Assembly (NCBI GenBank): GCA_951406725.2
Contig: OX597834.1
Span: forward strand, 37,138,001-37,202,000
Direction: 5' to 3'
DNA length: 64,000 nucleotides
Source: Octopus vulgaris
Lineage: Eukaryota
Shown: positions 17,849 through 59,780 of the stretch, in pieces
Numbering within the stretch: position 1 is the stretch's first letter
How the letters are laid out: each line of letters begins with the position of its first letter
The notes under the pieces: generated by a model
The model's database searches: none
What the model was told of the DNA's origin: nothing
What the model saw: only the letters and a program-made list of their open reading frames with translations
Program-made: the position numbers and the translations under genes

Positions 17849-17923
17849 ACTCTACCGATGATTCGAAAATGATTTGTAAGTAAAATTACACAATCTATTA
17901 ACGATGAAACAATTGTATAGAGT
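17849..17923 (+). ncRNA. Hammerhead ribozyme, CCGATGA core variant
   Basis: actcta-CCGATGA-ttcg...cgat-GAAA-caattg-TA-tagagt (6-bp stem I). Confidence 0.75.
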
Positions 17924-18193
17924 TAATCCATTTTTTCGTTATTTTTCATTTGTCCTGCCCCCTTACATTCTTGGCATGTTGAATTAATGCTTGAGAACAA
18001 TTCTTTAGTGGTGGATTCCCTTTGCGGATCTATTTCTAGCGTTAGAGTGACCACATGTGGTCCCTCTCTTATTACTTGTATTAATAATTTTTACTGAATC
18101 ACAGTTTTTTACGCTAGGCCACTTAGTGTTTTAAATTGATGTTGTTAATTAATATTCAATTTTTTTTCACCCTTATTGTGATTTTAATTATGC

Positions 18194-31706: not shown

Positions 31707-31737
<31 letters not shown>

Positions 31738-34700
31738 ATTAGAGACAAAACCACTATTTTGCAAAACAAACAAGGAAAGACTTAATCGTATAGTTTGTTT
31801 ATCTGTATGAGTGTGGGTGTGTAAATATTGTTGTATATATCGAGTTTAGTGAGTATGTATATGCGTATATGTGAGGGAGTATATGTATATGTTGTGTGTG
31901 TGTGTTTTGCGTATGTGTGTTTGTGTGTGAATGTGTATATGGGTTTGTTATATAGGTTTGGGGATGTATGTGTTAATTTGTCTGTGTGGGGAGGGAGTGG
32001 GTTTTTGGTGTATATTGAGGTTTATACGTTAGTATAGGTATGTGTGAGTGAGGTGGGTATTTGTATAAGTCGTGGGTCTGTGGTTTACGTGTGTGTATTT
32101 GTGTGTGAATGTTTAGGTTAGGGGGATTGCTATATAGGTTTGTTATAGAGTTTAGCAAAGGGAGATTTTATCATTATATGTTTTCGTGAGTTTTGGTTTA
32201 TCATGGTAGTTTTGTTAAAGAATTCGTAGTAATTTGTCTATTTGCGATGTTTGTTGTTTTGTTGCATTGTTTCATTCATAATTTTTGAGTGGTGTTCGTC
32301 TTACCACGTGAATATTATTTTTAATTCCATTTTTCCATTTCTCCATTCATAATTTTAAAAGATGTTCGTTTCCAGAGCGGGAATACTTTTTATACATATG
32401 TTAGGTTCCTTGGTAACGTATTTTTGTTTGGTGTATATGTTGAGGCTTATATGTACTTGTGGGTGTGTGTGAGTGGGGTGGGTGTTTGTATTTGTTATGG
32501 GTGTGTGGTTTACGTGTGTGTATTTGTGTGTGAATGTATAGGTTAAAGGGATTGCTATATAAGTCTGTTATAGGGTTTAGTAAAGGGAGGTTTTATCATT
32601 TATGTTTTTATGTACAAACGTGCATAGTAAAGGGAGCCCCATCACTACACTCAATGCATACTCTCACCTATCCGCACGGATGTGGAAGCGAATCACCGGT
32701 GTATATATTGAGGCTCATACGTAGCACTATGGAAGCGAACGTCATTGAAATTATGAATGGAATAAATGGAATTGGGAATTGTAACCGGGTGGTGGGCTAG
32801 CGTTGCTTAGGATTGGGAGTGGAATAGTGTAGTGAAATGGCAGACGTCGGGAATAGACGTGGATTGCTGCGAGTTATTTATTGAAACTGCCAGGATAAGC
32901 TAGAGCTCATAAATACATATAATAATTTATCATGGTAGTTTTATTAAAGAATCCATTCATAATTTTTTTGAGTAGTGTTGGTTTGCCGCGTGAATATAGT
33001 TTTTAGTTCCATTTATTCTATTTCTCCATTCATAATTTTAAGTGACGTTTGCTTCCATGGCGCGTATTCTTTTTATACATAAGTTATGTTCCTATGGTAA
33101 CGTAATTTGGTTTGGTTTTTTTAACGGCTTAGAATTTAATTTCACTTCATAATTTGAAACTGACTTGTAAGTATGTATATTATTTCTCCTTATGTCATAT
33201 TGTTATTTTTGATATTATGGTTAATTACGATGTATTTTATATATCGTTTTATGTGTAATAATGTTGTTTTTCTTTGGAGTGTTTATGTATGTGAGATTGT
33301 GTGTGAGTGTGTGCGTATTTTGGTTGTATAGTTTGTTTATCTGTATGAGTGTGGGTGTGTAAATATTGTTGTATATATCGAGTTTAGTGAGTATGTATAT
33401 GCGTATATGTGAGGGAGTATATGTATATGTTGTGTGTGTGTGTTTTGCGTATGTGTGTTTGTGTGTGAATGTGTATATGGGTTTGTTATATAGGTTTGGG
33501 GATGTATGTGTTAATTTGTCTGTGTGGGGAGGGAGTGGGTTTTTGGTGTATATTGAGGTTTATACGTTAGTATAGGTATGTGTGAGTGAGGTGGGTATTT
33601 GTATAAGTCGTGGGTCTGTGGTTTACGTGTGTGTATTTGTGTGTGAATGTTTAGGTTAGGGGGATTGCTATATAGGTTTGTTATAGAGTTTAGCAAAGGG
33701 AGATTTTATCATTATATGTTTTTATGAGTTTTGGTTTATCATGGTAGTTTTGTTAAAGAATTCGTAGTAATTTGTCTATTTGCGGTGTTTGTTGTTTTAT
33801 TGCATTATTTCATTCATAATTTTTGAGTGGTGTTCGTTTTACCACGTGAATATTATTTTTAATTCCATTTTTCCATTTCTCCATTCATAATTTTAAAAGA
33901 TGTTCGTTTCCAGAGCGGGAATACTTTTTATACATATGTTAGGTTCCTTGGTAACGTAATTTTGTTTGGTGGATATGTTGAGGCTTATATGTACTTGTGG
34001 GTGTGTGTGAGTGGGTGTTTGTATTTGTTATGGGTGTGTGGTTTACGTGTGTGTATTTGTGTGTGAATGTATAGGTTAAAGGGATTGCTATATAAGTATG
34101 TTATAGGGTTTAGTAAAGGGGGAGGTTTTATCATTTATGTTTTTATGAGTTTTAATTATTCTGGTTACTTACGATGTATTTTATATATCGTATTATGTGT
34201 AATAATGTTGTTTTTCTTTGGAGTGTTTATGTATGTGGGATTGTGTGTGAGTGTGTGCGTATTTTGGTTGTATAATTTGTTTGTCTGTGTGAGTGTGGGT
34301 GTGTTAATATTGTTGTATATATCGAGTTTAGTGAGTATGTATATGTATATGGTGTGTGTTTTACGTATGTATATTTGTGTGTGAATGTGTTTATGGGTTT
34401 GCTATATAGGTTTGGGGATGTATGTGTTTATTTGTCTGTGTGGGGTTGAGTGGGTTTTTGGAGTATATATTGAGGTTTATATGTATGTATAGGTATGTGT
34501 GAGTGAGGTGGGTATTTGTATATGTCGTGGGTGTGTGGTTTACGTGTGTGTATTTGTGTGTGAATGTTTAGGTTAGGGGGATTGCTATATAGGTATGTTA
34601 TAGAGTTTAGTAAAGGGAGATTTTATCATTATATGTTTTTATGAGTTTTGGTTTGTCATGGTAGTTTTGTTAAGGAATTCGTAGTAATTTGTGTCTATTT

Positions 34701-35027
34701 ACGATGTCTGTTGTTTTATTGTATTGTTTCATTCATAATTTTTAAGTAATGTTCGTTTTACCAAGTGAATATAATTTTTAATTCCATTTGTTCCATTTCT
34801 CCATTCATAATTTTAAATGATGTCCGTTTCCAGAGCGGGAATGTGGGTTGTATGTGTGTGTGAGGGAGTATGAATAAGTATTGTGTTGAAGTATTTGGCT
34901 ATTTTATTTATTTATCGTTGCCTAGACGTTTTTATGTGTATGTATAGGGATATATATATAGGTGTGTGATTTAGTGTATGTATTTAGAGATGGTTATATA
35001 TAATTAGTTATATGTGTATGGGTGTAT

Positions 35028-35357
35028 GATTGATTGATTGATTCTAGTTTCAGCTTATGAGCTGTGGCCATGCTGGGGCACTTCCATTTGGTGTTGCTAC
35101 TTGGTTTCACTTCATGGAGGCTTTCTAGCAACTGCTATTTGGTGCATGAGAGAGTTTGATGCAGCTGCCCTCATCTGCCCCTCCTGCCGTGAAGTTGGTT
35201 CATCTGGGACACCTGACAGGAAGAGATCCAGCTTCATTTTAAAGACATCTGTATCCACCCCATGCAGGTCTCTCAGGTTCTTCGGGAGGATATTGAAGAG
35301 CTGTGGGCCTCGGAAGCCCAGGCTATCACAGAATCTTGTCCTACATCTTGATGGCAG
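35028..35357 (-). mobile_element. 5'-truncated CR1-like LINE 3' end, inserted in the left pLTR only
   Basis: Minus frame reads ..GFRGPQLFNILPKNLRDLHGVDTDVFKMKLDLFLSGVPDEP..; (TCAA)n tail; gtat duplicated on both sides; absent from the right pLTR at ~43467. Confidence 0.75.
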
Positions 35358-35581
35358 GTATATATAGTTTATTTTTTGTTTTGTTTTGTTTTATATTTTA
35401 TATTTTATATTTTATATTTAATTGTTGATAGGTTTATTTTAGTTTATATATTGTTTATATATTGATTATATATGGATTATATATAGGTTATATATAGATT
35501 ATATATTTATATTTTTTCATTAATACTTTAATTATTTTAAAATTTTTATATTTTAAAATATTGATATTTTAGATTGGAAGT

Positions 35582-35624
35582 CCACCTGAAGATTGTCGAT
35601 CAGGACAAGAAACAATTGTAGTGG
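35582..35624 (+). ncRNA. Minimal type I hammerhead ribozyme (5' pLTR)
   Basis: ccac-CTGAAGA-ttgtc(gatcag)gacaa-GAAA-caattg-TA-gtgg: intact core, palindromic stem III, GUA cleavage triplet. Confidence 0.9.
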
Positions 35625-35859
35625 CAGTTTTTTTGACTTTTTATTAAAATTTTATGTATTGATTAAGTCTTTCCTTGTTTGTTTTGCAAAATAGTGGTTT
35701 TGTCTCTAATAATATTATATAATATTTTACTATAAAAATGGATTTAATCCTAAATCTGATTTTTTCCCTGTAAATTTGGATTTATTCCCTAATATTTATT
35801 ATTTTTATTTAATATTGATAATTTTGTATATTGAGTGTAATACCTCAATTTTGTAAATT

Positions 35860-38397
35860 ATGGATTTTACAGGTAAGATAGAACCGCCGTTTTGGGATTC
35901 ATCTTTGAAAGATATTCCTATTCCTTCTAGAAAGGAATTTATCTTGAAACTTGTTAATAATGTTAAAGATTTTATTTCTAGAATTAAATGGAAAGCTTTT
36001 TACTATAATTTTTATTTATTTAATGATATTGATAGTAGGAATGATAATTTTACCTCTAAATTTAAATCTAGAAAGGAACCTCCATTTAATAAAGAATTAC
36101 AATTACTTGAAGATAGTATATGGAAGGTGGTAAAAAATATTGAATTCCATAAATACGCAAATAGAAATAATGAATATTTAAGGAACTTAGCAATTAAAAT
36201 TAAAGATATGAGAAATATGGATGGTATTATAGTACAATCTGATAAAACAAGGAACCTATATAAATTAGATGTTAAATTATATGATAAACTATTAGGGAAA
36301 GAAATAATTAAAAAATATAAAATTGTTCCAGATGATATTCTTTATAATATTAATAAGGCCTCTAAATTAGTAATGTTAAAATATGAGTTGGATAATAAAA
36401 CTGAACCTTATGTACCTTTGCACCCCAGAATTACTCTTAAAGACCATAAAGATAATTTTTATTGAGACCCTAAAGTTAGATTAATTTGCCCATGTAAATC
36501 GGACCTAGGTAAATTAAGTAAATTTATTTTAGATAAATATATCGATAAGTTAAATAAACTTAATTATTTAAAATTATGGTTTAGTAATAACAATACATTG
36601 AAATGGTTTAATAATATTAAAGATAAAAATCGTTATAAATTTATTCAAATAGATATAGATAATTATTATTCTTCTATTAATGAAATTGTGTTTAATAAAG
36701 CGCTTATTTTCGCAATGAATAAAGTGGGTATGTCACGGGAAGAAGTTAATGTAATTAAAATGGCTAGGAAATCGCTAATTAAATATAAAAATAAATTATG
36801 GGCTAGGAATGATACTAGAGATTGTTTTGATATACCTATGGGAGCACCAGATTCTGCACAGGCTACTGATTTAGTAGGTATTTTTCTTTTATCTGAACTC
36901 CAATTAGAAAATCTTAAGATAGAGGGTGGCTTATATAGAGACGATCTTCTACTAGTTACAAAGAATTGTACTAATAGGAATCTAGAAGTATATAAGAAAA
37001 AACTATATAGTTTCTTTAAAAGATATGGTTTAAGTGTTACTATATATAAGGAGAATTATAATGTTAATTATTTAGATGTTAATTTTAATCTTATTACTGG
37101 TAAAACACAACCATATCATAAACTTAATGAGAACCTTAGATATATAAATGTTAATAGTAATCACCCATTTTCTATTAAAAAATCGTTGATTAATAATATA
37201 AGTAAACGTATTTCATTACTCTCTTATGATATAGAGATTTTTAATAAACATGCTAATTATTATAATGAGGCCCTTAGAGGGGCAGGTTATAATAGGAATA
37301 TTAAATTTTATAATATTAGTGATAAAGATTTAAATGATAATTTTCGAGATACTTCTAATAATAATTATAATTTTGTTAGGTTTGGTGGTAAAAATAGTAG
37401 ATATTATAAAAATAATAAAAATGATAAAAATATAAATAATAATAATAATAATAATAATAAAAATAATAATAATAATAATAAAAATAATAATAATAATAAT
37501 ACAAATAAGAATAATAAAAATAAAAATAAATTTAATAATTATTATAATAATTATATTGATAAAATTAATAATATTAATAATTCCTTAAATGCTGTACATA
37601 GATATAATTCTGATAATAATTTTAATAAAATAAATAATTATAAATATATTTATAATAATGATAATAATAATAAGGATAATAAGAATAAAATTTGGTTAAT
37701 AGTTCCTTATGGAGATCAAGTAAAAACGAATATTATTAAAGAGATTTTAGATGTTATTGAACTATTTATTAGAGATAATCGTAAATATAGAAACATTTTC
37801 TCTATTAATAATTTTGGAGTAGGTTATTCTACCACTAATAATGTAGGTAACATTATTTCTTCATTTAATAAATATAAACTGAATAATTTTTATAAAAAGA
37901 AATTATTAGGTAATAATATTAATAATGATAAGACTTATATTAATTGTACATGTAGAGTTAAATCTAATTGTATATTAAATAATAAATGTGATATTAACGA
38001 TGTAGTGTATAAATGTATAGTTACATTACATGATAATAACTTTAAGAATAATAATTACCCAAAAGCGGTTTATATAGGTTCTACTTCCTCAAAAATAAAA
38101 TTAAGAATCGCACAACATATGAATTCTTTTAAAAATAAAAACTTAATCAACTCAACCGGACTTAGTAAGTACATTTGGAGTCTTAAATCACTAAATATTA
38201 ATTATAGTTTAATTTGGGAAATAATTTGTAAAACTAAATCATATACTATAGGAGCTAATTGTTGTTATTTATGCTCTAATGAGTTAAAAGAAATTTTATT
38301 TTATAAGTATGATAATTTACTTAATACTGGTGAAGAGCGCAAAATAAAATGCAGACATAAGTTACTTTACCTATATAATAAGTTTCATGATAAATAG
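35860..38397 (+). pseudogene. PLE polyprotein: reverse transcriptase + GIY-YIG endonuclease, 845 codons with one in-frame TGA at 36463-36465
   Basis: ORFs 35860-36465 and 36598-38397 are in the same frame. RT motifs ITLKDHK, MGAPDSA and GLYRDD. Cys knuckle CTCR..C..C, then VVYKC..YIGST, CYLC..E and LN..E..CRH, typical of the Naiad/Chlamys clade. Confidence 0.9.
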
Positions 38398-41300
38398 CTT
38401 TAATAGTTCCCTATTAGGTTACTTTAGTTTAGTTTAATTTAGTTTAGATAATTATATTTATTTGGTTATGCAGTCTAGGCTTTAATTATAGTTAGTCTTT
38501 ATTGATATTTCTTTGTTTTAATTAGTTCATTTTTAATGTATATTAATATAACAGTTTATGGTACGTTAAAACTTTAATAATTTATATTAGATTTTTTTAT
38601 TTTCTTTAATTATATATTTTTTTTATTTTTATTTTATTTTATTATGTATTTTTATTATGTATTTGTTATATGTATATTGGAGGATATATTTATATGGATG
38701 ATGGGTGTTATTTAGTGGTGTATATATTGAGTTTTGTATGTATGTGTGAATGTTTACGATCCCTTTGTTTTTTATTTGGTATGTTGAATTGACAGATTTT
38801 ATTTGGGTATTGTCTGTTATAATAAAGTACACACACCCATAACAAATACAAGTGCCCACCTCATTCGCGCGTACCTGGAATAACGTATGAGCCTCAACAT
38901 ATACACCAAGGGACCACTCCCGCCCCACACGGACAGATAAACACATACATCCCCAAAAATGGGCGCAATCCCACTCACACCAATAATACATGTATACAAT
39001 TACACACACAAGAACAATACATAACTAACCCAAATATACAGAACATACCACAAATCACCAACAAACCACCATCACAAATGAAACCCACACCCATACAATG
39101 ACAAAACTCCCCCCTCCATACCCAATTACACCCACATAGCAATCCCCATATATTCATCCATACACAGGCGCGCATGCGCAGAACACACACACACAACACA
39201 TACGTACAACCCCCCAAACACACTCATATACATACGTATCAGACTCGACATCCACAACAATACGCTCACATCCACTCACACCCAGATAAACAAACTACAC
39301 AACCAAAAAACGCACACACACACGTGTGCGTATTTTAATTGTGCAATTCACCCATCCGCATGAATGCGGGCGCGAACACACCGTTGCACATATCGAGCCC
39401 AACAAGCATGCACATATACATGTGAGGGGTACACGCACATGCCGTGCGTGTATACCCCCCGCACTTATACCCGTGCGCGAATATACATATGGAGACTACA
39501 ACACAGGCACAAACGTGCATAGCAAAGGGAGCCCCATCACTACACTCAATGCATACTCTTACCCATCCGCACGGATGTGGAAGCGAATCACCGGTGCATA
39601 TGTTGAGGCTCATGCGTGGCACTATGGAGGCGAACGTCATTGAAATTGTGAATGGAATAGGTGGAATTGGGAATTGTAACCGGGTGGTGGGCTAGCGTTG
39701 CTTGAGATTGGGAGTGGAATAGTGTAGTGAAATGGCAGACGTCGGGAATAGACGTGGATTGCTGCGAGTTATTTATTGAAACTGCCAGGATAAGCTAGAG
39801 CTCATAAATACATATAATAATTTATCATGGTAGTTTTATTAAAGAATCCATTCATAATTTTTTTGAGTAGTGTTGGTTTGCCGCGTGAATATAGTTTTTA
39901 GTTCCATTTATTCTATTTCTCCATTCATAATTTTAAGTGACGTTTGCTTCCATGGCGCGTATTCTTTTTATACATAAGTTATGTTCCTATGGTAACGTAA
40001 TTTGGTTTGGTTTTTTTAACGGCTTAGAATTTAATTTCACTTCATAATTTGAAACTGACTTGTAAGTATGTATATTATTTCTCCTTATGTCATATTGTTA
40101 TTTTTGATATTATGGTTAATTACGATGTATTTTATATATCGTTTTATGTGTAATAATGTTGTTTTTCTTTGGAGTGTTTATGTATGTGAGATTGTGTGTG
40201 AGTGTGTGCGTATTTTGGTTGTATAGTTTGTTTATCTGTATAGTTTGTTTATCTGTATGAGTGTGGGTGTGTAAATATTGTTGTATATATCGAGTTTAGT
40301 GAGTATGTATATGCGTATATGTGAGGGAGTATATGTATATGTTGTGTGTGTGTGTTTTGCGTATGTGTGTTTGTGTGTGAATGTGTATATGGGTTTGTTA
40401 TATAGGTTTGGGGATGTATGTGTTAATTTGTCTGTGTGGGGAGGGAGTGGGTTTTTGGTGTATATTGAGGTTTATACGTTAGTATAGGTATGTGTGAGTG
40501 AGGTGGGTATTTGTATAAGTCGTGGGTCTGTGGTTTACGTGTGTGTATTTGTGTGTGAATGTTTAGGTTAGGGGGATTGCTATATAGGTTTGTTATAGAG
40601 TTTAGCAAAGGGAGATTTTATCATTATATGTTTTTGTGAGTTTTGGTTTATCATGGTAGTTTTGTTAAAGAATTCGTAGTAGCTTGTCTATTTGCGATGT
40701 TTGTTGTTTTGTTGCATTGTTTCATTCATAATTTTTGAGTGGTGTTCGTCTTACCACGTGAATATTATTTTTAATTCCATTTTTCCATTTCTCCATTCAT
40801 AATTTTAAAAGATGTTCGTTTCCAGAGCGGGAATACTTTTTATACATATGTTAGGTTCCTTGGTAACGTATTTTTGTTTGGTGTATATGTTGAGGCTTAT
40901 ATGTACTTGTGGGTGTGTGTGAGTGGGGTGGGTGTTTGTATTTGTTATGGGTGTGTGGTTTACGTGTGTGTATTTGTGTGTGAATGTATAGGTTAAAGGG
41001 ATTGCTATATAAGTATGTTATAGGGTTTAGTAAAGGGAGGTTTTATCATTTATGTTTTTAGGTACAAACGTGCATAGTAAAGGGAGCCCCATCACTACAC
41101 TCAATGCATACTCTCACCCATCCGCACGGATGTGGAAGCGAATCACCGGTGTATATATTGAGGCTCATACGTAGCACTATGGAAGCGAACGTCATTGAAA
41201 TTATGAATGGAATAAATGGAATTGGGAATTGTAACCGAGTGGTGGGCTAGCGTTGCTTAGGATTGGGAGTGGAATAATGTAGTAAAGTGGCAGACATCGG

Positions 41301-43691
41301 GAATAGACGTGGATTGCTACGAATTGTTTGTTGAAACTGCCAAGATGAGCTAAAGCTCATAAATACATATAATAATTTATCATGGTAGTTTTATTAAAGA
41401 ATCCATTCATAATTTTTTTGAGTAGTGTTGGTTTGCCGCGTGAATATAGTTTTTAGTTCCATTTATTCTATTTCTCCATTCATAATTTTAAATGACGTTT
41501 GCTTCCATGGCGCGTATTCTTTTTATACATAAGTTATGTTCCTATGGTAACGTAATTTTGGTTTGGTTTTTTTAACGGCTTAGAATTTAATTTCACTTCA
41601 TAATTTGAAACTGACTTGTATGTATATTATTTCTCCTTATGTCTTATTGTTATTTTTGATATTCTGGTTAATTACGATGTATTTTATATATCGTTTTATG
41701 TGTAATAATGTTGTTTTTCTTTGGAGTGTTTATGTATGTGAGATTGTGTGTGAGTGTGTGCGTATTTTGGTTGTATAGTTTGTTTATCTGTATGAGTGTG
41801 GGTGTGTAAATATTGTTGTATATATCGAGTTTAGTGAGTATGTATATGCGTATATGTGAGGGAGTATATGTATATGTTGTGTGTGTGTGTTTTGCGTATG
41901 TGTGTTTGTGTGTGAATGTGTATATGGGTTTGTTATATAGGTTTGGGGATGTATGTGTTAATTTGTCTGTGTGGGGAGGGAGTAGGTGTTTGGTGTATAT
42001 TGAGGTTTATACGTTAGTATAGGTATGTGTGAGTGAGGTGGGTATTTGTATAAGTCGTGGGTCTGTGGTTTACGTGTGTGTATTTGTGTGTGAATGTTTA
42101 GGTTAGGGGGATTGCTATATAGGTTTGTTATAGAGTTTAGCAAAGGGAGATTTTATCATTATATGTTTTTATGAGTTTTGGTTTATCATGGTAGTTTTGT
42201 TAAAGAATTCGTAGTAATTTGTCTATTTGCGGTGTTTGTTGTTTTATTGCATTATTTCATTCATAATTTTTGAGTGGTGTTCGTTTTACCACGTGAATAT
42301 TATTTTTAATTCCATTTTTCCATTTCTCCATTCATAATTTTAAAAGATGTTCGTTTCCAGAGCGGGAATACTTTTTATACATATGTTAGGTTCCTTGGTA
42401 ACGTAATTTTGTTTGGTGGATATGTTGAGGCTTATATGTACTTGTGGGTGTGTGTGAGTGGGTGTTTGTATTTGTAATGGGTGTGTGGTTTACGTGTGTG
42501 TATTTGTGTGTGAATGTATAGGTTAAAGGGATTGCTATATAAGTATGTTATAGGGTTTAGTAAAGGGAGGTTTTATCATTTATGTTTTTATGAGTTTTAA
42601 TTATTCTGGTTACTTACGATGTATTTTATATATCGTATTATGTGTAATAATGTTGTTTTTCTTTGGAGTGTTTATGTATGTGGGATTGTGTGTGAGTGTG
42701 TGCGTATTTTGGTTGTATAATTTGTTTGTCTGTGTGAGTGTGGGTGTGTTAATATTGTTGTATATATCGAGTTTAGTGAGTATGTATATGTATATGGTGT
42801 GTGTTTTACGTATGTATATTTGTGTGTGAATGTGTTTATGGGTTTGCTATATAGGTTTGGGGATGTATGTGTTTATTTGTCTGTGTGGGGTTGAGTGGGT
42901 TTTTGGAGTATATATTGAGGTTTATATGTATGTATAGGTATGTGTGAGTGAGGTGGATATTTGTATATGTCGTGGGTGTGTGGTTTACGTGTGTGTATTT
43001 GTGTGTGAATGTTTAGGTTAGGGGGATTGCTATATAGGTATGTTATAGAGTTTAGTAAAGGGAGATTTTATCATTATATGTTTTTATGAGTTTTGGTTTG
43101 TCATGGTAGTTTTGTTAAGGAATTCGTAGTAATTTGTGTCTATTTACGATGTCTGTTGTTTTATTGTATTGTTTCATTCATAATTTTTAAGTAATGTTCG
43201 TTTTACCAAGTGAATATAATTTTTAATTCCATTTGTTCCATTTCTCCATTCATAATTTTAAATGATGTCCGTTTCCAGAGCGGGAATGTGGGTTGTATGT
43301 GTGTGTGAGGGAGTATGAATAAGTATTGTGTTGAAATATTTGGCTATTTTATTTATTTATCGTTGCCTAGACGTTTTATGTGTATGTATAGGGATATATA
43401 TATAGGTGTGTGATTTAGTGTATGTATTTAGAGATGGTTATATATAATTAGTTATATGTGTATGGGTGTATATATAGTTTATTTTTTGTTTTGTTTTGTT
43501 TTATATTTTATATTTTATATTTTATATTTAATTGTTGATAGGTTTATTTTAGTTTATATATTGTTTATATATTGATTATATATGGATTATATATAGGTTA
43601 TATATAGATTATATATTTATATTTTTTCATTAATACTTTAATTATTTAAAAATTTTTATATTTTAAAATATTGATATTTTAGATTGGAAGT

Positions 43692-43734
43692 CCACCTGAA
43701 GATTGTCGATCAGGACAAGAAACAATTGTAGTGG
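43692..43734 (+). ncRNA. Minimal type I hammerhead ribozyme (3' pLTR)
   Basis: Identical to 35582-35624. Confidence 0.9.
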
Positions 43735-43906
43735 CGGTTTTTTTGACTTTTTATTAAAATTTTATGTATTGATTAAGTCTTTCCTTGTTTGTGTTGCAAA
43801 ATAGTGGTTTTGTCTCTAATAATATTATATAATATTTTACTATAAAATTGGATTTAATCCTAAATCTGCTTTTTTCCCTGTAAATTTGGATTTATTCCCT
43901 AATATT

Positions 43907-43981
<75 letters not shown>

Positions 43982-44075
43982 ATCCAAGCATGAAAACACA
44001 AAGAGAAAACACAACAACGTGAGGACGTGGATCAAGTATAGTATTATTGAACGCTCAGGAAAGAAGGAAACGAGG

Positions 44076-44110
44076 GTTTAACATTTCGAGCAGAGCTCTT
44101 CATCAGAAAC
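44076..44110 (-). ncRNA. Minimal hammerhead motif in a PLE-derived repeat (~43980-44180)
   Basis: Reverse complement: gttt-CTGATGA-agagc(tct)gctc-GAAA-tg-tta-aac. Confidence 0.6.
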
Positions 44111-45538: not shown

Positions 45539-45782
45539 TGAATACTGCTTCAGTTGCGTGCATAGGGTTATGTCAATTACAGTTGTTGTCATAAAATAGA
45601 TGCAATTAATAGAACTATTGTAAGAAAACACTTATATTAATCCTATTAACATATAATATAGATATAGTAATCTAACCGATTGCCCTAAAAATATGGACAG
45701 ACTTCAGAGTGACTCTCGTAAAACAGATAGGACAATATTAACAAACACAAGTTATATAATATTAAAATGATAATAATCTCAC

Positions 45783-46448
45783 CTTCATTTTGACTCTTGT
45801 GGCCAGCTGGTCCCTATTCCGGTTCTCATTTTCTGGTGTTATCCTCTTCCACAAGAAGTTAGCAAGTATTGTGTAAGTTACAGTTAGCATAGTAAAAGGC
45901 AGGAAGCAAGTACAAATGCTCATCACCCACTGATAAATCAAATATGACCATTCTCCCCAGGTACCTATGCATGTCACATAGTTTTCTCCACCATAGTTAA
46001 TTTTTTCAATTCTGATGAAAAAAAGGGGTACGGAAGATATTGTTGCCGAGAGCAACCAGATCAGGGCGATTGTAGGCGTAGATCTAGACGTCGATATCCG
46101 ATATTTTAGTGGGAACAATATAGCGAAAAGTCGATCAACACCAATCGCCACATTCGTAGAGGAACTCATGGTTATAGAAAATGACTGAAGAAAATCAACC
46201 AGAGTGCAATAGACCGGGGAAATAAACGATTCGGGAATATAGATAATTATTAAGGTGAATGGGAGACAGAATATTCCCATGATTAGATCAGCAACTGCCA
46301 AATTGAGAAGGTAAGGTTTAAAGTCCGTTTTACATTTCTTACCTTTGGCGAAGACTATTATTGATAATATATTACCAGAAATTGAAGCAAATGTTGATAA
46401 ACTGCAAAGAACTGTTAGAAAATTTAGCGCTAGAGTAGACGAAAACAT
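45783..46448 (-). CDS. GPCR B exon 1 (TM1-TM5), paralog of GPCR A
   Basis: GNILSIIVFAKGKKCKTD is shared with A; also NLAVAD and AIGVDRL. Same phase-0 donor GTGAGA after KMK. First in-frame ATG at 46448 (the ORF track starts at a TTG). Confidence 0.88.
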
Positions 46449-47074
46449 TTCAGCAGATATATGGGTAGAAATCGAATCACCTCGGTTTTCTAAAGATTTT
46501 GCTGTAGGCAAGTTATTTGCGGTGGGAAAAGTAGGAGAATTTTTACTGTTTCTGATTTTAAACTTTCGAATTTGAAAATTAGAGAGAGGATGTGTGAGGA
46601 TAATCAGGCAGAATATAATTAAGATGTGTGAGTGAGAGGGAAAGAAAGAGAGATCGAGTATGAGTGAGACAAAGGCAGTGTTAGTTGCAGTAAGAGGGAA
46701 GAGAGAGATATGCAGAGTATGAGTGAGTGAAAGACACTCAGTTTAAGGGAGTGAAAGACAGAGACAGTGAGAGAGGACGATGGAAATAGAAACACAGAGA
46801 GGGAATGTGAAAAAGAGAGAGGGAACGAGAGGGCGAGAGATCGTGAGTTATGGAAATTAAGAGAAAAAAGGTGGTAGACAGAGTGAGAAAGAAAGTGAGA
46901 GAAAGAGAGAGAAGAAAAAGAGTATGTGTGAAAGGGAAAGATTTGGAAGAGAAAGAGAAACAGTGTACGTGAGAGAGAGAGAAAGAGAGAGAGAGATTGG
47001 GAGAGAAAGAGAGAAAGAGACGGGGAAAATAGACAGACAGACAGTCAGAAAGACCACGTGCAAGTTAGAGTGAA

Positions 47075-49449: not shown

Positions 49450-52400
49450 GCTGTAAAGACGTTTTCCGATTCAAAATTTTAGTTCATTCCAAAACCTCGC
49501 TAATATAAGTATCTATTTATATTTTACATCTTTAAATCGTCAATTTTAATATCTATAAGTCTTTGGTGTAATAATATTTTTCTTATGTAAATATTGTTGT
49601 TTATGTAATGATCTAATTATCGTAATTTTCTATATAATTATTAGATATTAAATTTAAGTTTATTCGTAACATATTACTTAGCGATAGATGTGTTGTTTGA
49701 TAGCAAGATTACGAGTTGTCTAAAGTTAGATTTATGTACATACATGTATTAATAGTATTAATTGTAGTTTTAAATTTCTTATAATTAAAATTAGATAAAC
49801 TTAGATATGCTTCGACCAAAGATTGGTCCAGGCTATGTCTAACTTAATAGCTTAACTTAGTTATTGTCTTTTTAAATTGATATTTGCCATTGATAAATAT
49901 ATTTATAGTATTTTTAGTATTTATTCGATACTATATAACTACGAATTGATTATTTGCATAAGTATTTTAAATAAGATCTCCGAAAGTTCGTTTAAGTTTG
50001 TTTGGTTGTATTTTTGAATTTAGATATTTCATCTTTAAATATGAAATATTAATTTATTAGCTCTTTATTATATGTGCATATATATTTATTTATAGAGATT
50101 ATTTTAGATCTCAATTATAATAATTATATACATATATATATATCCATTGATAATTTTTTATATATAATAGTCATTTTTAAAAAATATTTATGTAATTAGG
50201 TATAGACTTTTACTGACATTAGATTTTCGGTGGGTTTCTTACCTTAAAATTTAAATTAATATTTAACATTATAATCGATTTTGATATAATCATAATTATT
50301 ATGTTTTAAGTTTCTAGTTTGATAATAGAGTTTATTATAAGTAAAATTATTATATTATTTATATCTTTAAAATATTGTTTAAATATTTCTGATTATTTTA
50401 AAAATATTTCAACTAACCTGAAGATTGGCTGTAACCATAGCTCAAATTATTTATTGAATATAAATTATTGTTATTCGAATTGGTACAGCCATGAAACGAT
50501 CGTAGTGTTTTACTCTTTATCTTTTATGAAACTTTTAATACTTTTGATATTTATATATAAAATTTTTTTAAATAAAATAAATGAATAAATAAATAAATAA
50601 AAATAAATGAATTAATTAATTTATAAACAAAATAATATATAAATATAAAAATATACATATATATATATTTGTATATATATATTTAAATTTATGAGTTTAA
50701 ATTATTGTAATAATTTTTAAATTTTTAACTTTTATATTTTAAAATTAATTTTACGTATTGGCTTATGTTTTTCACTGTTTGATTTGCCTAATAATGGTTT
50801 TATCTTTAATTTAATATAATATAATATAATATATTTATACTATAAAATTGGATTTAATCCTGAATCTAATTTTTCCCTGTAAGTTTGGATTTTTTCCCTA
50901 ATATTATTATTATTAATTAATATATTGATAAATTACGTAAATTGAATGTTATTACAGGTAAGATAGAACCGCTATTTTGGAATTCATCTTTGAAGGATAT
51001 TCCAATACCTTCTAGGAAAGAATATATTTTGAAACTTATTAATAATATTAAGGATTTTGTTTCTGGAATTAAATGTAAAGCCTACTATTATAACTATAAT
51101 ATATCTAATTTTAATGATTGTATGAATGATAATTTTACTTCTAATGTTAAATCAAAAATTGAACCCCCATTTAATAGAGAATTACAAATACTAGGAGATA
51201 ATATTTGGAAGGCGGTGAAAAACATTAAATTTCATTAATACACGAACAGAAATAATGAATATTTAAGAAATTTAGCAATTAGAATTAAAGAAATGAGAAA
51301 TATGGATGGTATTATTGTACAATCAGATAAAACTAAGAATCTCTATAAATTGGATGTTAAATTATATGATAACCTTTAAGAGAAAGAAATAATAAAAAAA
51401 ATATAAAATTGTTCCAGATAGTATACTTTATAATATTAATAACTCCTCTAAATTAGTAATGATAAACTATGAGTTGGATAATAAAACTGAACCTTATGTA
51501 CCTATGCACCCTAGAATTACTCTGAAAGACAATAAAGATAATTTTTATTCTGACCCTAAAGTTAGATTAATTTGTCCATGTAAATTTGACCTTGTTAAAT
51601 TGAGTAAACTTATTTTAGATAAATATTTAAGTAAATTAAATAAACTTAATTACTTAAAATTATGGTTTAGTAATAATAATACTTTAAATTGGTTTAATAA
51701 TATTAAAGATAAAAATCGATATAAATTTATTCTAATAGATATAGATAATTACTATTCTTCTATTAATGAAATTGTGTTTAATAAGGCCCTTATTTTTGCA
51801 ATGAATAAAATGGGAATGACTTTTGAAGAGGTTAATGTAATTAAAATGGCTAGGAAATCGTTTATAAAGTACAAAAATAAATTATGGGCTTGGAAAGATA
51901 CTAGGGACTTTTTTGATATACCTATGGGAGCACCTGATTCTGCACAAGCTACGGATTTTGAAGGTATTTATCTTTTATCTGAACTCCAGTTAGTAAATTT
52001 AAAAATAGAGGGTGGTTTATATAGGGATGACCTTCTACTTATTACTAAGAACTGCACTAATAGGAACATAGAAGTATATAAGAAAACACTTTATAGTTTC
52101 TTTAAAAGATATGTTTTAAGTATTACTATACATGATGAGAATTTTAATGTTAATTATTTAGATGTTAATTTTAATCTAATTACGGGTAAAACACAACCAT
52201 ATCATAAACTTAATGAGAACCTAGATATATAATTATTAATAGTAATCACCCACCATCAATTAAAAAATCGTTGATTAATAATATAAGTAAACGTATATCA
52301 TTACTTTCTTATGATTTAGAGATTTTTAATAAACATGCACATTATTACAACGAGGCCCTCAGAGAGGCAGGTTATTATAGTAATATTAAATGTTTTATAA

Positions 52401-53720
52401 AAATTAAGATAAAACTATTAATAATAGACATAAAAATATTAGTAATATTTATAATGATTTTATTAGTAATACTGGTAATCTTAGTAATTATAAAAATAAA
52501 AATAATATAAATAAAAATATGAATAAAAATAAAAATAATAACTTTAATAATTCTTTAAATGTTAATTATAATTATAAATTTAAATCTAATAATGATAATA
52601 ATAATATGATAAAGAAATATAATAATAATAATGGTAACAATAATAATGATAGTTTTAATAATAATAAGATGCAAAATAAGAATAAAATTTGGTTAATATT
52701 TCCTTATGGTGCTCAAGTTAAAACGAACATTATAAAAGAGATTTTAGGTATTATTTAACTATTTATTCGAGATAATCTTAAATATAAAAACATTTTCCCT
52801 GGTAATAATTTTGGAGTGGGTTATTCCACCACTAATAGTGTAGGTAACATTATTTCTTCTTTTAACAAATTTAAACTGAATAATATTTATAAAAAAGATA
52901 AGACACTTATTAATTGTACATGTCGAGATAAAACTAAATGGAAGTTAAATAATAAATGTGATATTAACGATGTAGTGTTTAAATGTATAGTAACATTACA
53001 TAATGAGAATAGTCAGAATAATTACAATTCAAACGTGATATATATAGGGTCCACTTCCTCTAAAACAAAATTAAGAATCGCACAGTATATGCATTCATTT
53101 AAAAATAAAAACTTAATTAACTCCACTGGACTTAGTAAGTACATTTGGAGACATACATCCCAAAATGTTTATTATGTTTTATCATGGGAAATAATTAGTA
53201 AGGCTAAATCATATAGTATATGAGGGAATTTTTGTTATTTATGTTCAAATGAGTTTAATGAAATTTTATTTTATAGGCATGATAATTTAGTGAATCACTG
53301 GGATGAGCGCAAAATAAAATGCAGACACAAGTTACTTTACTTGTATAATAAATTTCTTGATAAATAACGAATATTTCTTATCCTTAATTAGCTCCTTATT
53401 TGTTGATTTATGTAATAGTATTCTAGATTAGTAAGATAAAATATTTAGATTAAACTTAATGTTTACCTCTATTTTTGTATTAAAGTATGAATATAGAAAT
53501 TTATATACGTATTTATTTATATGATATATGAGTTTGTGTGTGTATGTATATATATGTATAGGTTGATGTTCGTGTATATATATGTATATATATATACATT
53601 TATTTGTGGGTGTGTGTGGGTGGGTGTGTGTGGGTGGGTGTGTGTATATAAGTGTATGTGTATTTATTGAGCATTGTATGTATGTACATGTATGTATGTG
53701 TATGTGTGTATTTGAGTGCA

Positions 53721-53775
<55 letters not shown>

Positions 53776-54335
53776 ATGTGTGTATATTCATATATATATA
53801 TGTATACGTATGTATAGCTATACCGCAAATTTTGATAAGTATTTTAGAGATTTTGGTTATGATCACTAATTTTAGCTTATTTTAAGTGTATGGGAAAGAC
53901 TTTATAATACGTTGAGGGGTTTGTATAATAAAATTTTTTATATATGCATTAATCATATAAGATTTTTAGAGTATATTTTATAATTAGTGGTTTTTTATCA
54001 TTTAAATTATTTAATTTATTTTGTATTAACTATTATTTATCATAGTTATTAATAAGTCTTATAGTATAGAGTGATTTTATTCTTTGATATTTATATATAA
54101 AATAAACAAATGAAACAAATAAAAAAAAAATTAATTAATTAATTAATAAACAAAATAATATATAAATATAAAAATATACATACATGTATATATATATAAA
54201 TTTATAAGTTTAAATTATTTTTATAATTTTTTACTTATTAACTTTTATATTTTTAAATTGATTTTATGTATTGACTTAGGTTTTTCACTGTTTGATTTGT
54301 CTAGTAGTGGTTTTATCTCTAATTTAATATAATAT
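49450..54335 (+). mobile_element. Second, decayed Naiad-type PLE (RT + GIY-YIG pseudogene ~50950-53366)
   Basis: Fragmented ORFs are highly similar to 35860-38397 (GLYRDD, YIGST). The pLTR terminus is repeated at ~50520-50900 and ~54075-54335. The left boundary is approximate. Confidence 0.85.
50415..50509 (+). ncRNA. Hammerhead ribozyme with extended stem II
   Basis: CTGAAGA-ttggctgtaacca...tggtacagccat-GAAA-cgatcg-TA; stem I is weak. Confidence 0.7.
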
Positions 54336-54416
54336 ATATATATATATGCTCCAACATGACCTAGCCTAGTGGCTGAGACGAATAAAAGAGTGTACGTTTA
54401 TCTGTATGTGTGTATG

Positions 54417-54453: not shown

Positions 54454-55647
54454 ATACATACATACATATATACGTATATATATATATATATATATATATA
54501 CCTACATTATTTATATATATCTATATCTATATCTATATATATTTATATATATATATACGTATATAATGCAGGTTTAAATGTTGGGGTTTTCTCATTATAA
54601 GAATTGTATTCATAGATTAATCATGTTTGAATAAATATAAATAATAAATGATATCACTAAATGATGATAAATAACGTCAAAATCACAAATAATGCAAATG
54701 CATATACTCTCACACACATACAAACACACACAGGCTTACACACACGCGCGTGCAAACACACACACACACACACACATAATCACTTAAGGTTCACTTATAT
54801 TCTTTTTCTCTTTTTATTAGTGGCTGTGGTTATCGATCTTCGTTATTGCTTAAGAACCATCTTCAAAGACATAAATAATGGTTTTAAATATTGGCAGAAG
54901 GTGAGTAGTTTCGTCGTCGGAGGAAGCAAGTCGACTCCATCAACTCTGGTGCTTCACTGCTATTTATTTTATCGTTCTCAATTTGGTGGAAGGCAATGTC
55001 GACCCCGGTGGCATTTGAACGCAGGACATAAAAACGGACGAAATAGTGTTAAGCATTTTGTCCAGCGTGAGAAAGATTCTGCCAGCTCGCTGTCTTAATT
55101 AGGCTTAATATTATTAATGAAAACTGCGACAATAAATCTATCAAATTTGACATTGCCAAATAAATACCGTCTTGATATGTTGGAAAATATATTCTAAAAC
55201 CGCTATTTCAACCGTATTCCTTTGTTCCAAATAATAGAGAAGAGAAATGAAAAATTATCTCATTAGGAGTGATAATTCGAAGAACATGGTTACTGAATTC
55301 AATGCCAGCAAAAGCTGGAGATCATGGGGGAACGGAACAAAAATTTAGCATAATACAGTTCTATATTGGAGAGTTGTGGAATTATGTACATAATTTATAT
55401 TATTTACAATTGATGGATATTTGTCCTCATCTTTACGGAGATGTACTTGCATAGCAAGTGATCTGATGTGAGATCGTGTGCTGGAACGAAAACAATTCTA
55501 GCTTGGAAGGTGTTTATAAGCCATTTAAGAAACACACAAAAACTGTTAAATTCACTTCAACATTTAAATTTAATTTGCGAAAATATTTTCATCGCTTTGA
55601 GACCGTGACCTGTTCACTGACAAAATTCAATCGTCTTGTTTATTGTT

Positions 55648-55691
55648 AATACAACATTTCGGCTGATATACCCACCAGACTTCATCAGGTG
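55648..55691 (-). ncRNA. Partly decayed hammerhead
   Basis: Reverse complement: cac-CTGATGA-agtctgg...tcagcc-GAAA-tgttgta. Confidence 0.55.
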
Positions 55692-55725: not shown

Positions 55726-58700
55726 CTTTTTTTTTCTTCTTTCAAATTTGCTTCCATTTCTTGCCGAGTGTCTTCCCGACTCCTAGGGCAAAGAAACTCA
55801 TAGAATACATTGGTAAGCCATTAAACCAAACTCAGTAGTTCCTTTATTTTTTTATATTATTTTTTTTTTTAAAGTTAAATTAAAATACATGAGCAGCAAC
55901 AGTTCTCACATCGACAATGCTCTTCTTAATACGTGTGATGTACCAGTTAAGACAATCTTTTGCACTTCTTGCAGGGATGGTAAGCCAGGGATCATTCTCA
56001 TATAATTTTCGGTTCCCTTCTTGATCATTCCTAGTGCTCCTACGATCACTGGTATTGTAACCGCCTTGAGATGCCACATTTTCTCAATTTCAATGAGTAG
56101 GTCTTTATATTTTCTGAGCTTGTCAAACTCTTTCGCTGAGATATTATGATCACAGTGGATGCTCATGTCGATCAATAAGCAAACTTTATTGTTTTGGTCT
56201 TTCACAACAATATCTGGTTTATTGGCCTTGATGATTCGGTCTGTATGTACTGGAAAGTCCCACAGAATGGTTACATTTTCTCCTTCAGTTACAGCCTCAG
56301 GGTGGTGATTATACCACTTGTCGGCAGTTTTGATATTGTAATGCCGACTTATTAGCCAGTGGAGATATTGGCCAACTCTGTCATGTCTTAATTTATACTC
56401 CACTGGTGCTAAGACTTTACATCCAGAGATTAGGTGGTCCACTGTTTCAATCATGTCTTTGCAGAATCGGCATTTTGGGTCTGCTCCATTTTTCATCACA
56501 TTGGCCGGGTAGTTCCGGGTTAATAGGCTTTGATCTTGAGCAGCCAGGATGAAACCTTCGCTTTCTGCTTTTAGCCCTGAGCTCCGTAGCCACTGATGGG
56601 TTTGCTTCTGGTCAACATCAGCTTGTTTGCTGCGGGTCACATGTTTGCCGTGCAGAGGTTTCTCCTCCCACCTATCAGCCAATTGCTCGTGCGCTTTTTT
56701 CATTGCCATCATTTTCACCTTCTTTGCAACAATAGTTGCCGTACTTCCCTCGGGTTGTTCAGTTTGGGTATCCTGCACGAGATCAATAGCAACTTTTTGC
56801 TTTCCTTTATGATAGAATGAAGCTTCTTTCGTCTCTCGTGATTTTCCACGAGCTTTAGCATCCAGTCATTCGATATTTCGAGATATTTGGCCAGTCCAAT
56901 TGTGGTTGTTTTGTAAGCTAGTTCAAATTGGATCAGGCCTCGACCTCCTTGGGCTCTGGGAAGGTAAAGGCGATCTACGTCTGCCTTTGGGTGGTGCATC
57001 CTATTACAACTCAGCAGCTTGCGTATTTTCCTATCTATATTCTTTACTTCACTCATATTCCAGTTCAACACATTGTAGCTATAAGTAACAACTGGAACTG
57101 CTAAGGAATTTATAGCTAACACCTTGTTACGTGCATTTAGTTCAGATTTTAGGACTGCACGAACTCTCCTATAACATTCCTTCCTGATTTTCTCTTTCAT
57201 GCTTGCATGCTGAATACCAGAGCCTTCATTTATCCCTAAATATTTGTATGTTTGTTCTTGCTCAAGCTCTCTTATGACTGTGTCAACATCTAACACGACT
57301 GAATTTGTGGTCTTCACTTTCCCTTTCTGGAAAGTGGCCTTGGCACACTTCTCAAGTCCAAACTCCATCCCGATGTCATCGCTGAATGCTTTCACGGTAT
57401 GCAATAGGCCTTCAAGTTCATTATTGTCTTTACCATAAAGTTTTAAGTCATCCATATGAAATAGATGGCTTATTTTTTTATTGGCAATTTTATACCCATA
57501 CCCTGTTCTGTTTAATTCACTTGTAAGGGGTATTAGGGCTATGCAGAATATTAAAGGTGAAAGTGAGTCACCTTGAAAAATTCCACAGTTGATGTTTATA
57601 TTTTCTGAGGCAAGTACTCCATTAGAGTGGTATAATTGGAGATTCGTATTCCACAACGACTTATTGTGCTTCAGGAAGTTTGAAACCACAGGGGAAATTT
57701 TGAAGATGTCCAGCGATCTCAAGATCCATGGATGCGGTATACTGTCGAAGGCCTTTTTATAGTCAATCCATGCGGTGCTGAGATTTCTGCGCTTGTTGTG
57801 ACAGTTCTCAAGGATCATACGATTGATTAGCAGTTGGTCTTTGCATCCGTAAGAGCCTCGGCGGCACCCTTTTTGTTCAATGGGGAAAATATCGTTCTTC
57901 TCCATGAATGCATATGTTTTCTCCGCCAGGATAGATGTTAGGATTTTATACGTGGTGGATAGACAGGTTATAGGCCGATAGTTTTTTGGAAGGTTGGTTT
58001 CGTTATTCTTTGGGAGTAGGTAAGTAATGCCACTTGCTAACCATTCAGGTGTTTTCTTTGGGTCTCCCATAATTCCATTGAGCAGCTGAACTAGCTTACC
58101 GTGTGCGCATGGGAGCGATGCGAGCCAGAAATTCGGCACCCTATCTTTACCGGGGGATTTCCAATTATGGGCCTTCGTGAGTGCCTTTCTTAGGTCTGCT
58201 ATTGTGATGTCTTCCCATGCTTGTTGTTGTAAATTTTGGTAGGATCCTTCAGTTTGTATATTCCAGTCTGCATTTATGTTGTACGTCTTCTTATCACTCC
58301 AAATCCTTTTCCAAAAGTTTTGAACTTCTTCCATGGGAGGGGGTCTTTAACGGTTACTTTCTCCTTCCCTATTTCTCTGTAGAATTTTTTGGCATTGGAT
58401 GTGAACAGCTTATTTTGCTTGTAAAACTTGTTTCTCTTCTCAAATCTTCGTATTCTTTGGGCTTTTGCTTGGAGTTTTTGTTTCAGCGTTTCTTTTATTG
58501 ATATCAGTTCTTCTCTTGGTGAGGATCCAAATTTTCTCTTCATCTTTCTTCCTGTTCTGGATCTTACATCATTTCCACATATTAGTTCATTTAATATTGA
58601 TATTTCCCCTCTCATAAATTCAATCTCTTTTTCAATTTTACTTCTCCGGGTTTGATTTCTTCCCAGGTTTTGTTTTCTTTGTTTTTTCGGGGGCATACAG

Positions 58701-59780
58701 CTGGTTTCAATTGCTGTTCTGTATTGTTTGTGAATAGAGAAGTTGTGTTCGACCAGAGAGAATCTTAGCATCATCATTTTTTTTTTCCATGTGCGTTTGT
58801 GTTATTGCAATAAAAAGTGTTTGTATATTTCCTGTAAGGTAATATTGTGGAGGTTGAAGTTGACTTTTCTAGAGATGTTTGTATGTCCAGTTAGAAGAAC
58901 AGGTGTGTTTTTACAATAAAAAGTATATGTTTACATTTATATTTGAATATTCAGGGAGGAAGCAAAGAAAAGTCAGATTTTCATAGAAAGTTTTAGGGTT
59001 TTGTAAGTCCACAAAAAGAAAAGCGTGATGTTTTTAGAGAGAAGAAAAAAAAGGGGGGGATGTTTACAGAGGCAATTGTGGGTATCAAAGTTTTTAAAGC
59101 TGGTCGAATGTATGATTGAAAACTGTAGATATGTAAATTTGTAAATTTTCTTAACTTATTTTGAAGGGCTGTTCTGTATTATTTCTGAATAGAGAAGCTG
59201 TGTTCGACCAGAGAGAATCTTAGCATCATTATTTTTTCCATGTGCGTTTGTGTTATTGCAATAAAAAGTGTTTGTATATTTCGTGCAAGGTAATATTGTG
59301 GAGGTTGAAGTTGACCCCTCTAGAGATGTTTGTATGTCCAGTTAGAAGAACAGGTGTGTTTTTGCAATAAAGTGTATATGTTTACATTTATATTTGAATA
59401 TTCTGGGAGGAAGCAAAGAAAAGTCAGATTTTCATAGAAAGTTTTAGGGTTTGCAAGTCCACAAAAAGAAAAGCGTGATGTTTTTAGAGAGAAGAAAAAA
59501 AAAAGGTGCTTACAGAGGCAGTTGTAGGTATTAAAGTTTTTAAAGCCGATCGGATGTATGTTTGAAAGCTGCAGATATGTAAATTTGTAAATTTCTTAAC
59601 CCACTTTGAAGAAAATTTCAAATACTCACGAGGTATTGTAGATGTTCCAGTCTTTGAGAGTTATTTTTCCCCGTTGCTAAACTGGCCCATATTAGTGTTT
59701 CTATGGCTTTCAGCCACCGAACTGTCAGAGCAGTGAGGAACACGTCCAGCCGCTGTCAAGGCTGGCGCTCTTCTTCCATA
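55726..59780 (-). mobile_element. R4/Dong-like non-LTR retrotransposon (RT + CCHC + restriction-like endonuclease), frameshifted
   Basis: Three overlapping ORFs at 58274-58777, 56715-58334 and 55906-56778. Motifs NYRPITCL, DYKKAFDS, FQGDSLSP, HMDDLK, CRFC..H..GC, RHD, KPDIV..ID. Flanked by (TAA)n. Assigning 58780-59780 to this element is tentative. Confidence 0.88.
58713..59610. repeat. Two tandem copies of a ~455 bp unit
   Basis: gctgttctgtatt..gaatagagaag..tgtgttcgaccagagagaatcttagcatc occurs at ~58713 and ~59168, and the copies stay colinear. Confidence 0.85.

Follow-up and report, generated by a model that had tools for sequence, protein, structure and literature searches.

Penelope-like elements (PLEs) of the Hydra clade were described by Craig et al. 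(2021; PMC8557442). Members of this clade are generally under 3 kb, a size that is typical but not defining, and are marked by an R-x-x-WK motif, DKT, CxCx5C, the lack of CCHH, and CxxC plus CxH near the end of the protein; the pseudo-long terminal repeat (pLTR) is the standard partial tandem of PLEs, and inverted 5′ pieces are part of the pattern (PMC8557442). PLE minimal hammerheads were reported to be inactive as monomers and to have low activity as dimers (Cervera and De la Pena, 2014; PMC4209133). In one PLE that was assayed with protein, the hammerhead cut only in the presence of protein, insertion did not depend on it, and reads ending at the cut site were absent (PMC11167929). As regards RNA editing, ADAR avoids a 5′ G and octopus showed one of the two strongest hyper-editing signals among the compared species (PMC5625713), repeat-directed RNA editing has been published (PMC9068888), and there is a retroviral precedent in which about half of the A in an inverted repeat turned to G (PMC12925331). 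Here, we analyzed 64,000 nt of Octopus vulgaris DNA (GCA_951406725.2, contig OX597834.1, positions 37,138,001 to 37,202,000 of the forward strand; "the window", numbered from its first letter), which contains a Hydra-clade PLE with a unit of 8110 nt and a 3′ region of 5333 nt. What is new here, within the Hydra clade, is the size of the unit together with G-U helices that carry an editing signature. The following features are referred to throughout, whereby the segment names PA, PB, S, T, and R are labels coined for this analysis:

31722..31787 (-), inverted piece of the element's 3′ end, 66 nt, joined to (TA)n at its left; 98.5% reverse-complement match to 35661-35725
31788..35801 (+), 5′-truncated upstream tandem copy ("pLTR"), 3684 nt when a later insertion is not counted
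35028..35357 (-), the later insertion, 330 bp: 3′ end of a LINE-type element (presumably CR1/L2) with a short-repeat tail and a 4-bp duplication GTAT; the copy downstream lacks it
35582..35624 (+), hammerhead 1 of type I with a palindromic stem III; cut predicted after 35620
35860..38397 (+), open reading frame (ORF) for reverse transcriptase (RT) plus an endonuclease (EN) of GIY-YIG type at the C terminus, Hydra clade, with an Asn-rich linker insertion; TGA break at 36463-36465
38820..39320 (+), segment PA, rich in A and C; partner of the R repeats in sense RNA and of PB in antisense RNA
39323..39620 (+), segment PB, 29% C, related to the R repeats in the same sense; forms the other arm of the antisense G-U rod
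39602..39825 (+), segment S1, helix strand rich in purines; holds 21 A/G differences from S2
39830..43290 (+), R and T repeats, G/T-rich, including an internal duplication of 1.55 kb (39505-41060 and 41060-42590); S2 at 41194-41380
43692..43734 (+), hammerhead 2, core identical to that of hammerhead 1; predicted cut after 43730
43735..43911 (+), 3′ terminus of the insertion, with (TA)n beyond it
50416..54347 (+), older degenerate copy of a sibling family with the same ORF (83% and 78% DNA identity), a hammerhead-like motif, and the palindrome ACGATCGT

The odd feature of this element is its 5333-nt 3′ region and not the length of its pLTR. Inverted and tandem duplication brought the 3′ region of this lineage to 5.3 kb, about a three-fold growth of the RNA tail, which is predicted to fold into long G-U-rich helices. 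The predicted fold of the region has an energy of −1602 kcal/mol compared to −1241 and −1233 kcal/mol for two block shuffles, with a paired fraction of 71% compared to 66-67% and 42% of the bases in stems of at least 30 bp compared to 19-24%. The suggestion of an earlier sequence-only reading that this tail is highly base-paired is thus borne out by the long stems, whereas the paired fraction as such is barely raised. Three helix systems were found, namely S-T and PA-R in the sense RNA and PA-PB in the antisense RNA, in which 20-40% of the pairs are G-U and almost none are A-C. Relative to shuffles, the S-T helix at 39600-39980 has a z-score of −11.3 on the + strand and −3.5 on the − strand, a second S-T pair at 40600-41400 reaches −24.5, and the PA-PB rod at 39200-39500 has −11.1 on the − strand and −5.8 on the + strand. 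The S1 and T5 arms differ by 49 changes of the G-U type and 3 of the A-C type, and PB and reversed PA by 110 and 8, respectively. Three other inverted pairs within the window are symmetric (26:34, 34:22, and 3:1), and the ORFs of the element and of the sibling copy differ by 85 transitions and 87 transversions. PA (36% C) and PB (29% C) are richer in C than the unpaired flanks (2-9%), which argues that C was gained. When 39323-39530 is compared with 39091-39320, sense G of PA mostly faces C in PB (11 sites) and seldom U (2 sites), as if A-C mismatches had been mended to G-C or the rod had been maintained. Folding in 200-nt windows misses the sense helices (1 of 27 windows with z below −2 on the + strand). 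Scanning for G-U pairing yielded 31 matches outside the element, 29 of which lie in 1-16000 and pair simple-repeat tracts, and none within the ORF or the sibling copy.

The two copies of the internal duplication differ at 40 sites, which comprise 4 C/T differences at the end of PB, 21 A/G differences (39602-39798), and 15 mixed differences in the remaining 1230 nt. All 21 differences between S1 and S2 within 197 nt are A/G, in contrast to the 15 mixed ones in about 1230 nt (p 3e-10). The 5′ neighbor is U or A at 19 of the 21 sites compared to 46 of 89 unchanged A (p 0.001), 18 of the sites face U in the helix, and 16 carry G in S1 and A in S2. There is no change at any of the 29 pyrimidine sites able to tolerate wobble (p 0.003), and the partner strand is variable at 10 of 45 purines opposite U compared to 3 of 52 pyrimidines opposite G (p 0.033). 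Inosine is read as G by reverse transcriptase. Judged from this pattern, the recent 21-site cluster probably represents host ADAR editing that was fixed by reverse transcription; that ADAR editing is also the main source of all the G-U pairs would be slightly favored. With R as an outgroup, A-to-G changes on the antisense strand of the rod amount to 41 in PB and 14 in reversed PA, compared to 2 and 2 in the opposite direction. Most simply, this rod would be a hairpin that had been edited in the sense orientation and was inverted later.

The sibling copy has a short 3′ region without G-U helices. Among related loci, a G-U-aware scan gave matches in 2 of the 77 metagenome and 1 of the 14 genome loci, whereby a long helix was found only in L024; as many of the scanned loci are short contigs, this rate of 1/91 is a lower bound. 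The 14 genome-contig loci showed no long G-U helix and one 52-nt match, in L080, and a search of viral contigs gave 18 pattern matches and no relative. L078-L091 are Hydra-type PLEs with hammerheads in contigs filed as bacterial genomes (L080 has two hammerheads 2487 nt apart), and these probably are host DNA in bacterial bins. L024 is a Hydra-clade element from a metagenome with an intact ORF, a hammerhead-like end, and a (TA)n end. Its 3′ region forms a predicted unbranched hairpin of 385 bp (z −22.2 on the + strand and −4.5 on the − strand), in which two scanned segments contain 159 Watson-Crick, 87 G-U, and 4 A-C pairs. The hammerhead-like end at L024:4047-4084 has the core GUGAUCA, a natural C3G/G8C double change, and a 4+1+4 palindromic stem III, which was seen by eye and is missed by the descriptor. 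There is no DNA similarity between the L024 tail and the octopus tail, and in a quick tree of 106 rows the two elements do not group as sisters. This tree, which is unfinished and has the octopus element on a long branch, does not support a common origin of the two G-U tails.

Several points weigh against the editing explanation. Depletion of 5′ G alone is not significant in the 21-site cluster (p 0.07), a neighbor test on the older G-U pairs gave p 0.045 in 1 of 12 comparisons (U/A versus C/G) and 0.056-1 in the others, and no excess variation of purines opposite U is seen in the R repeats (4/11 versus 2/10 and 1/18 versus 1/13). The direction of change at the 21 sites is read without an outgroup, the folding energy is compared to two shuffles only, and the argument draws on the DNA sequence of a single long-tailed copy. 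Furthermore, L024 has no ADAR context signal (p 0.2-0.7) and its base composition fits C-to-U equally well as A-to-G, so that selection for pairing may contribute. A G-U share near one third would also be expected from long selection for pairing with neutral wobbles. It could be proposed that selection alone is responsible: helices would be useful for packaging or stability, for binding of the RT, or for evading silencing, mismatches would be purged, and G-U pairs would drift to about one third, which would also erase perfect inverted repeats from the DNA. The scarcity of A-C and other mismatches in every helix is in line with this proposal, as are the equal G-U share of L024 without an ADAR context and the occurrence of the trait in two branches that are not sisters in the quick tree. 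However, selection can explain neither the eight-fold higher divergence in S nor its restriction to A/G, with 0 of 21 changes at pyrimidines, and the uneven variation of purines and pyrimidines on the partner strand speaks against it as well. We therefore consider selection alone unlikely, whereas it may be that selection and editing both act.

It is also conceivable, although improbable, that both RNA polarities are copied, whereby the 8.1-kb unit would circularize, pass through an RNA-to-RNA or antisense-templated step, and fix ADAR edits of either strand. This would suit the antisense A-to-G changes in both arms of the rod and the 4 differences at the duplicated PB end, which are all C/T and each precede A, and RNA-to-RNA steps have been proposed for PLE hammerheads (PMC4209133). 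On the other hand, a single inversion accounts for the rod and PLEs invert routinely, one of the 4 C/T sites sits on the duplication junction, the − strand of the window lacks a hammerhead with a palindromic stem, and the L024 hairpin is confined to the sense strand. No better chance is given to the wider idea that the unit is partly a viroid-like circular RNA copied in both polarities, in which sense and antisense ADAR edits are inherited and long G-U helices recur as a selected trait in some elements of the Hydra clade, preserving RNA structure and at the same time concealing inverted repeats from silencing at the DNA level. Deamination of DNA intermediates appears very improbable, be it by a cytidine deaminase on cDNA, spontaneously on single strands, or by ADAR on RNA:DNA hybrids. 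The 16 sites with G in S1 and A in S2 can be read as G-to-A, and ADAR edits dA of hybrids in vitro (PMC12925331). Yet the changes lie in predicted RNA duplex strands and face U, and CpG covers just 15 of 65 C/T differences in PB. GG/GA is the deaminase motif on DNA; the 3′ neighbors of the sites, if read as G, are T at 9, G at 7, A at 3, and C at 2, which does not resemble it. Finally, artefacts of assembly or polishing among near-identical repeats could have produced the stop codon, the internal duplication of 1.55 kb, or the patchwork copy described below, given that the upstream copy is patched together from two internal blocks and that the assembly sequence alone was considered. Polishing, however, cannot generate context-biased differences restricted to A/G or strand-specific G-U helices, and a like helix occurs in L024, which stems from other data, so that this account is hardly credible.

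From left to right, the insertion consists of (TA)n, the 66-nt inverted piece, the cut-down upstream copy, the full unit, 181 nt beyond cut 2, and (TA)n. The upstream copy is 98.95% identical to 40238-43471 and 96.6% identical to 43468-43942, and the end points 35725/43835 and 43911 delimit a short "tail". The copied length of 11,794 nt corresponds to 1.45 units, starting 181 nt past cut 2 and extending 3.5 kb past cut 1. Since the copied stretch crosses both cut sites, it was templated either by an uncut multimer or by a circle, i.e., by uncut or recircularized RNA, and the cleaved linear monomer of ~8.1 kb envisaged by the sequence-only reading was not the template of this insertion. The upstream copy is pieced together from the two internal repeat blocks, as seen at 18 of 18 tested sites; such a patchwork can arise either through template switching or through assembly and does not discriminate between circle and multimer. 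The sequence-only reading had further described a pLTR of at least 3.7 kb, far above the PLE norm. The duplicated length of 3674-3684 nt, without the 330-bp later insertion, agrees with this figure, but it is no fixed feature, since the length of a pLTR is given by the point at which the upstream tandem copy stopped and 3.7 kb only marks the end of copying. Its estimate that about two-thirds of the unit are non-coding corresponds to a computed 68.7%. In a search of sequencing runs, no RNA run was among the matches listed, and DNA-like entries of three organism labels covered 0.28-0.52 of the query words.

The hammerheads themselves are ordinary: their type, the dimer-favoring palindrome, and the idea of a circle have already been published. 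As had been noted from the sequence, two perfect copies with a palindromic stem III delimit the unit. Their 43-nt cores at 35582-35624 (+) and 43692-43734 (+) are identical letter for letter, each with a 4-bp stem I, a CUGAAGA core, a 5-bp stem II, GAA, and the 8-nt palindrome ACAATTGT, their flanks are nearly alike (5 mismatches per about 440 nt), and the predicted cuts after A35620 and A43730 are spaced by 8110 nt. A full descriptor, requiring stems I, II, and III, found only these two hammerheads on the + strand of the window, and on the − strand one non-palindromic match and no palindromic-stem hammerhead. A loose pattern is unspecific (19 matches compared to 4.9 expected by chance), and Rfam gave no match at gathering score anywhere in the window. 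When two bare 43-nt cores were cofolded, the double hammerhead was the structure of lowest energy (−22.2 kcal/mol), whereas the active monomer fold of the bare core has a probability of 1.3%. With the natural flanks added, an inactive hairpin (−14.9) wins and the cofold is no longer a double hammerhead. The dimer-type hammerhead that had been proposed is supported by the modeled bare core but not by the modeled flanked sequence, which together fits the published behavior of PLE hammerheads. In the sibling copy, changes in both halves of stem III have left its palindrome perfect, which points to past selection for the palindrome. The sibling motif fails the full descriptor with only 2 contiguous pairs in stem I. 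The same descriptor detects a hammerhead in 35 of 77 related loci; in 5 of the 77, two hammerheads flank the ORF at a distance of 2397-2847 nt, and in 22 loci the first hammerhead lies 102-804 nt after the stop codon, some of these stops being premature. Two more hammerhead-core-like motifs without a palindromic stem III are located in other repeats of the window, at 44072-44106 (-) and 55647-55688 (-).

By five motif and structure tests the element is an EN+ PLE of the Hydra clade. The ORF contains RIKWK at 41-45 and DKT at 128, corresponding to the RWK-type motif and DKT of this clade, YRDD at 359, CTCRVKSNC (CxCx5C) at 696, VVY...YIG at 713-740, CYLC (CxxC) at 802, and CRH (CxH) at 831, whereas CCHH is absent from the endonuclease, where the two halves of the motif have no Cys pair between them. 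(TA)n, the target of the clade, borders the insertion on both sides, and the hammerhead matches the type I pattern of the clade by eye in comparison with the published list (supplement of PMC8557442). A set of 60 long ORF homologs shares 34-43% identity, the nearest short match 57%, and the quick RT tree, built without named Hydra references or an outgroup, places the element as a long branch within the homolog set; searches of Pfam and PDB with the sequence of the element gave no match. The PLE identity and the presence of an RT-EN ORF are in agreement with the sequence-only reading, which however missed that an in-frame TGA at 36463-36465 (codon 202) breaks the ORF. Because of this stop codon, the present copy is dead in cis. 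In the aligned column, the 60 homologs have N 31 times, S 7 times, T 6 times, and never Cys, and the sibling copy has a Ser codon. Consequently, a selenocysteine reading of the TGA and a selenoprotein-coding PLE, as known from some Naiads, were rejected, and recoding of the stop through RNA editing was rejected as the G-U scan found no helix in the ORF. Around the start codon (35860-35885 and, in the sibling, 50946-50975) conserved motifs resembling an acceptor and a donor are present, and an in-frame ATG is missing there from the sibling; the 5′ region may contain an intron. A low-complexity insertion is present in the RT-EN linker of both long-tailed elements (37330-37690 and L024:1500-1990), in which the distance from YRDD to CxC is 337 and 371 aa compared to about 212-231 aa in most relatives; P0056, P0057, P0059, and P0060 have 361-367 aa.

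Taken together, we regard the following scenario as probable overall. A Hydra-clade PLE inserted into (TA)n as an inverted piece, a cut-down copy, and a full copy, and its tandem read-through RNA would bear a hammerhead at every unit boundary. Judging from the predicted folds and from other PLEs, cleavage would require two hammerheads in a dimer and would probably be slow or aided by protein, while the insertion itself was copied from RNA left uncut or recircularized. Inverted and tandem duplication lengthened the 3′ region to 5.3 kb and thereby gave rise to the predicted long RNA duplexes, in which host ADAR would edit A to I. The RT of the element would copy I as G, so that each round might fix further G-U pairs in the DNA, and an edited sense hairpin would later have been inverted to give the antisense rod. 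If true, host RNA editing would act as a heritable mutagen of a germ-line retrotransposon that rebuilds its RNA into G-U helices, and the DNA would keep a dated record of this editing. The direction of the G-U pairs would tell which strand was RNA and thus provide a handle on the role of PLE hammerheads and on the question of circular or both-polarity RNA. The second, unrelated hairpin of 385 bp suggests a recurrent feature that is under-reported by ordinary inverted-repeat searches. No report of ADAR-fixed G-U tails in PLEs was found in the literature searched, with most subscription journals and Repbase/Dfam outside its scope.

Elsewhere in the window, two related ORFs for rhodopsin-family receptors (13334-14212 (+) and 45762-46742 (-)) are 75% alike and lie in opposite orientation; their nearest named proteins are Octopus tachykinin-type receptors, and the gene 2 kb downstream of the element has 76% and 64% identity to two Octopus proteins. 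At 55906-58801 (-) lies a non-LTR retrotransposon with a disrupted reading frame (frameshifted), which matches RVT_1 and, weakly, zf-RVT. The inverted repeat of 360 nt at 17084-17443 and 17727-18086, which is 98% complementary with 283 nt in between, is possibly a small DNA transposon.

With the Hydra clade (Craig et al., 2021; PMC8557442) the octopus element shares the single RT-EN ORF, the motif set, the (TA)n target, and the partial tandem with an inverted 5′ piece, as well as the type I hammerhead, in which an extra U follows the core and stem III is palindromic. It differs in its unit of 8110 nt compared to 1080-3045 bp in 27 listed families, in its 3′ region of 5333 nt compared to the short distances in the 22 related loci given above, and in an Asn-rich linker that is longer by about 120 aa; G-U helices are unmentioned in the covered parts of PMC8557442. 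Hydra-1_Obim from Octopus bimaculoides, with 2507 bp, belongs by eye to a different family. Palindromic stem III, dimer dependence, and tandem spacing are common to PLE minimal hammerheads (PMC4209133), for which a circle as template was proposed in the same work, while stem II of the octopus hammerhead opens with U-A, U-A instead of the usual G-C. Retrozymes are short and non-coding (bioRxiv 2026.07.22.740005), and identity with them was rejected in view of the 8.1-kb unit with its RT-EN ORF. The PAc Poseidon element (Frangieh et al., 2024; PMC11167929) likewise shows an RT start inside the RNA, downstream of the hammerhead, and a short bracketed "tail"; it belongs to another clade, and a long structured 3′ region is unreported in the covered parts of that study. 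L024 resembles the octopus element in its long 3′ region, the sense-strand G-U-rich hairpin, the long linker insertion, the hammerhead-like end, and (TA)n, and is distinguished by its one unbranched hairpin of 385 bp and its intact ORF. The ADAR hypermutation of avian retroviruses (PMC12925331) shares the A-to-G clusters in an inverted repeat that are copied by RT, whereby those are single viral events, whereas in the octopus element, a germ-line retrotransposon, the changes seem to have accumulated over several rounds.

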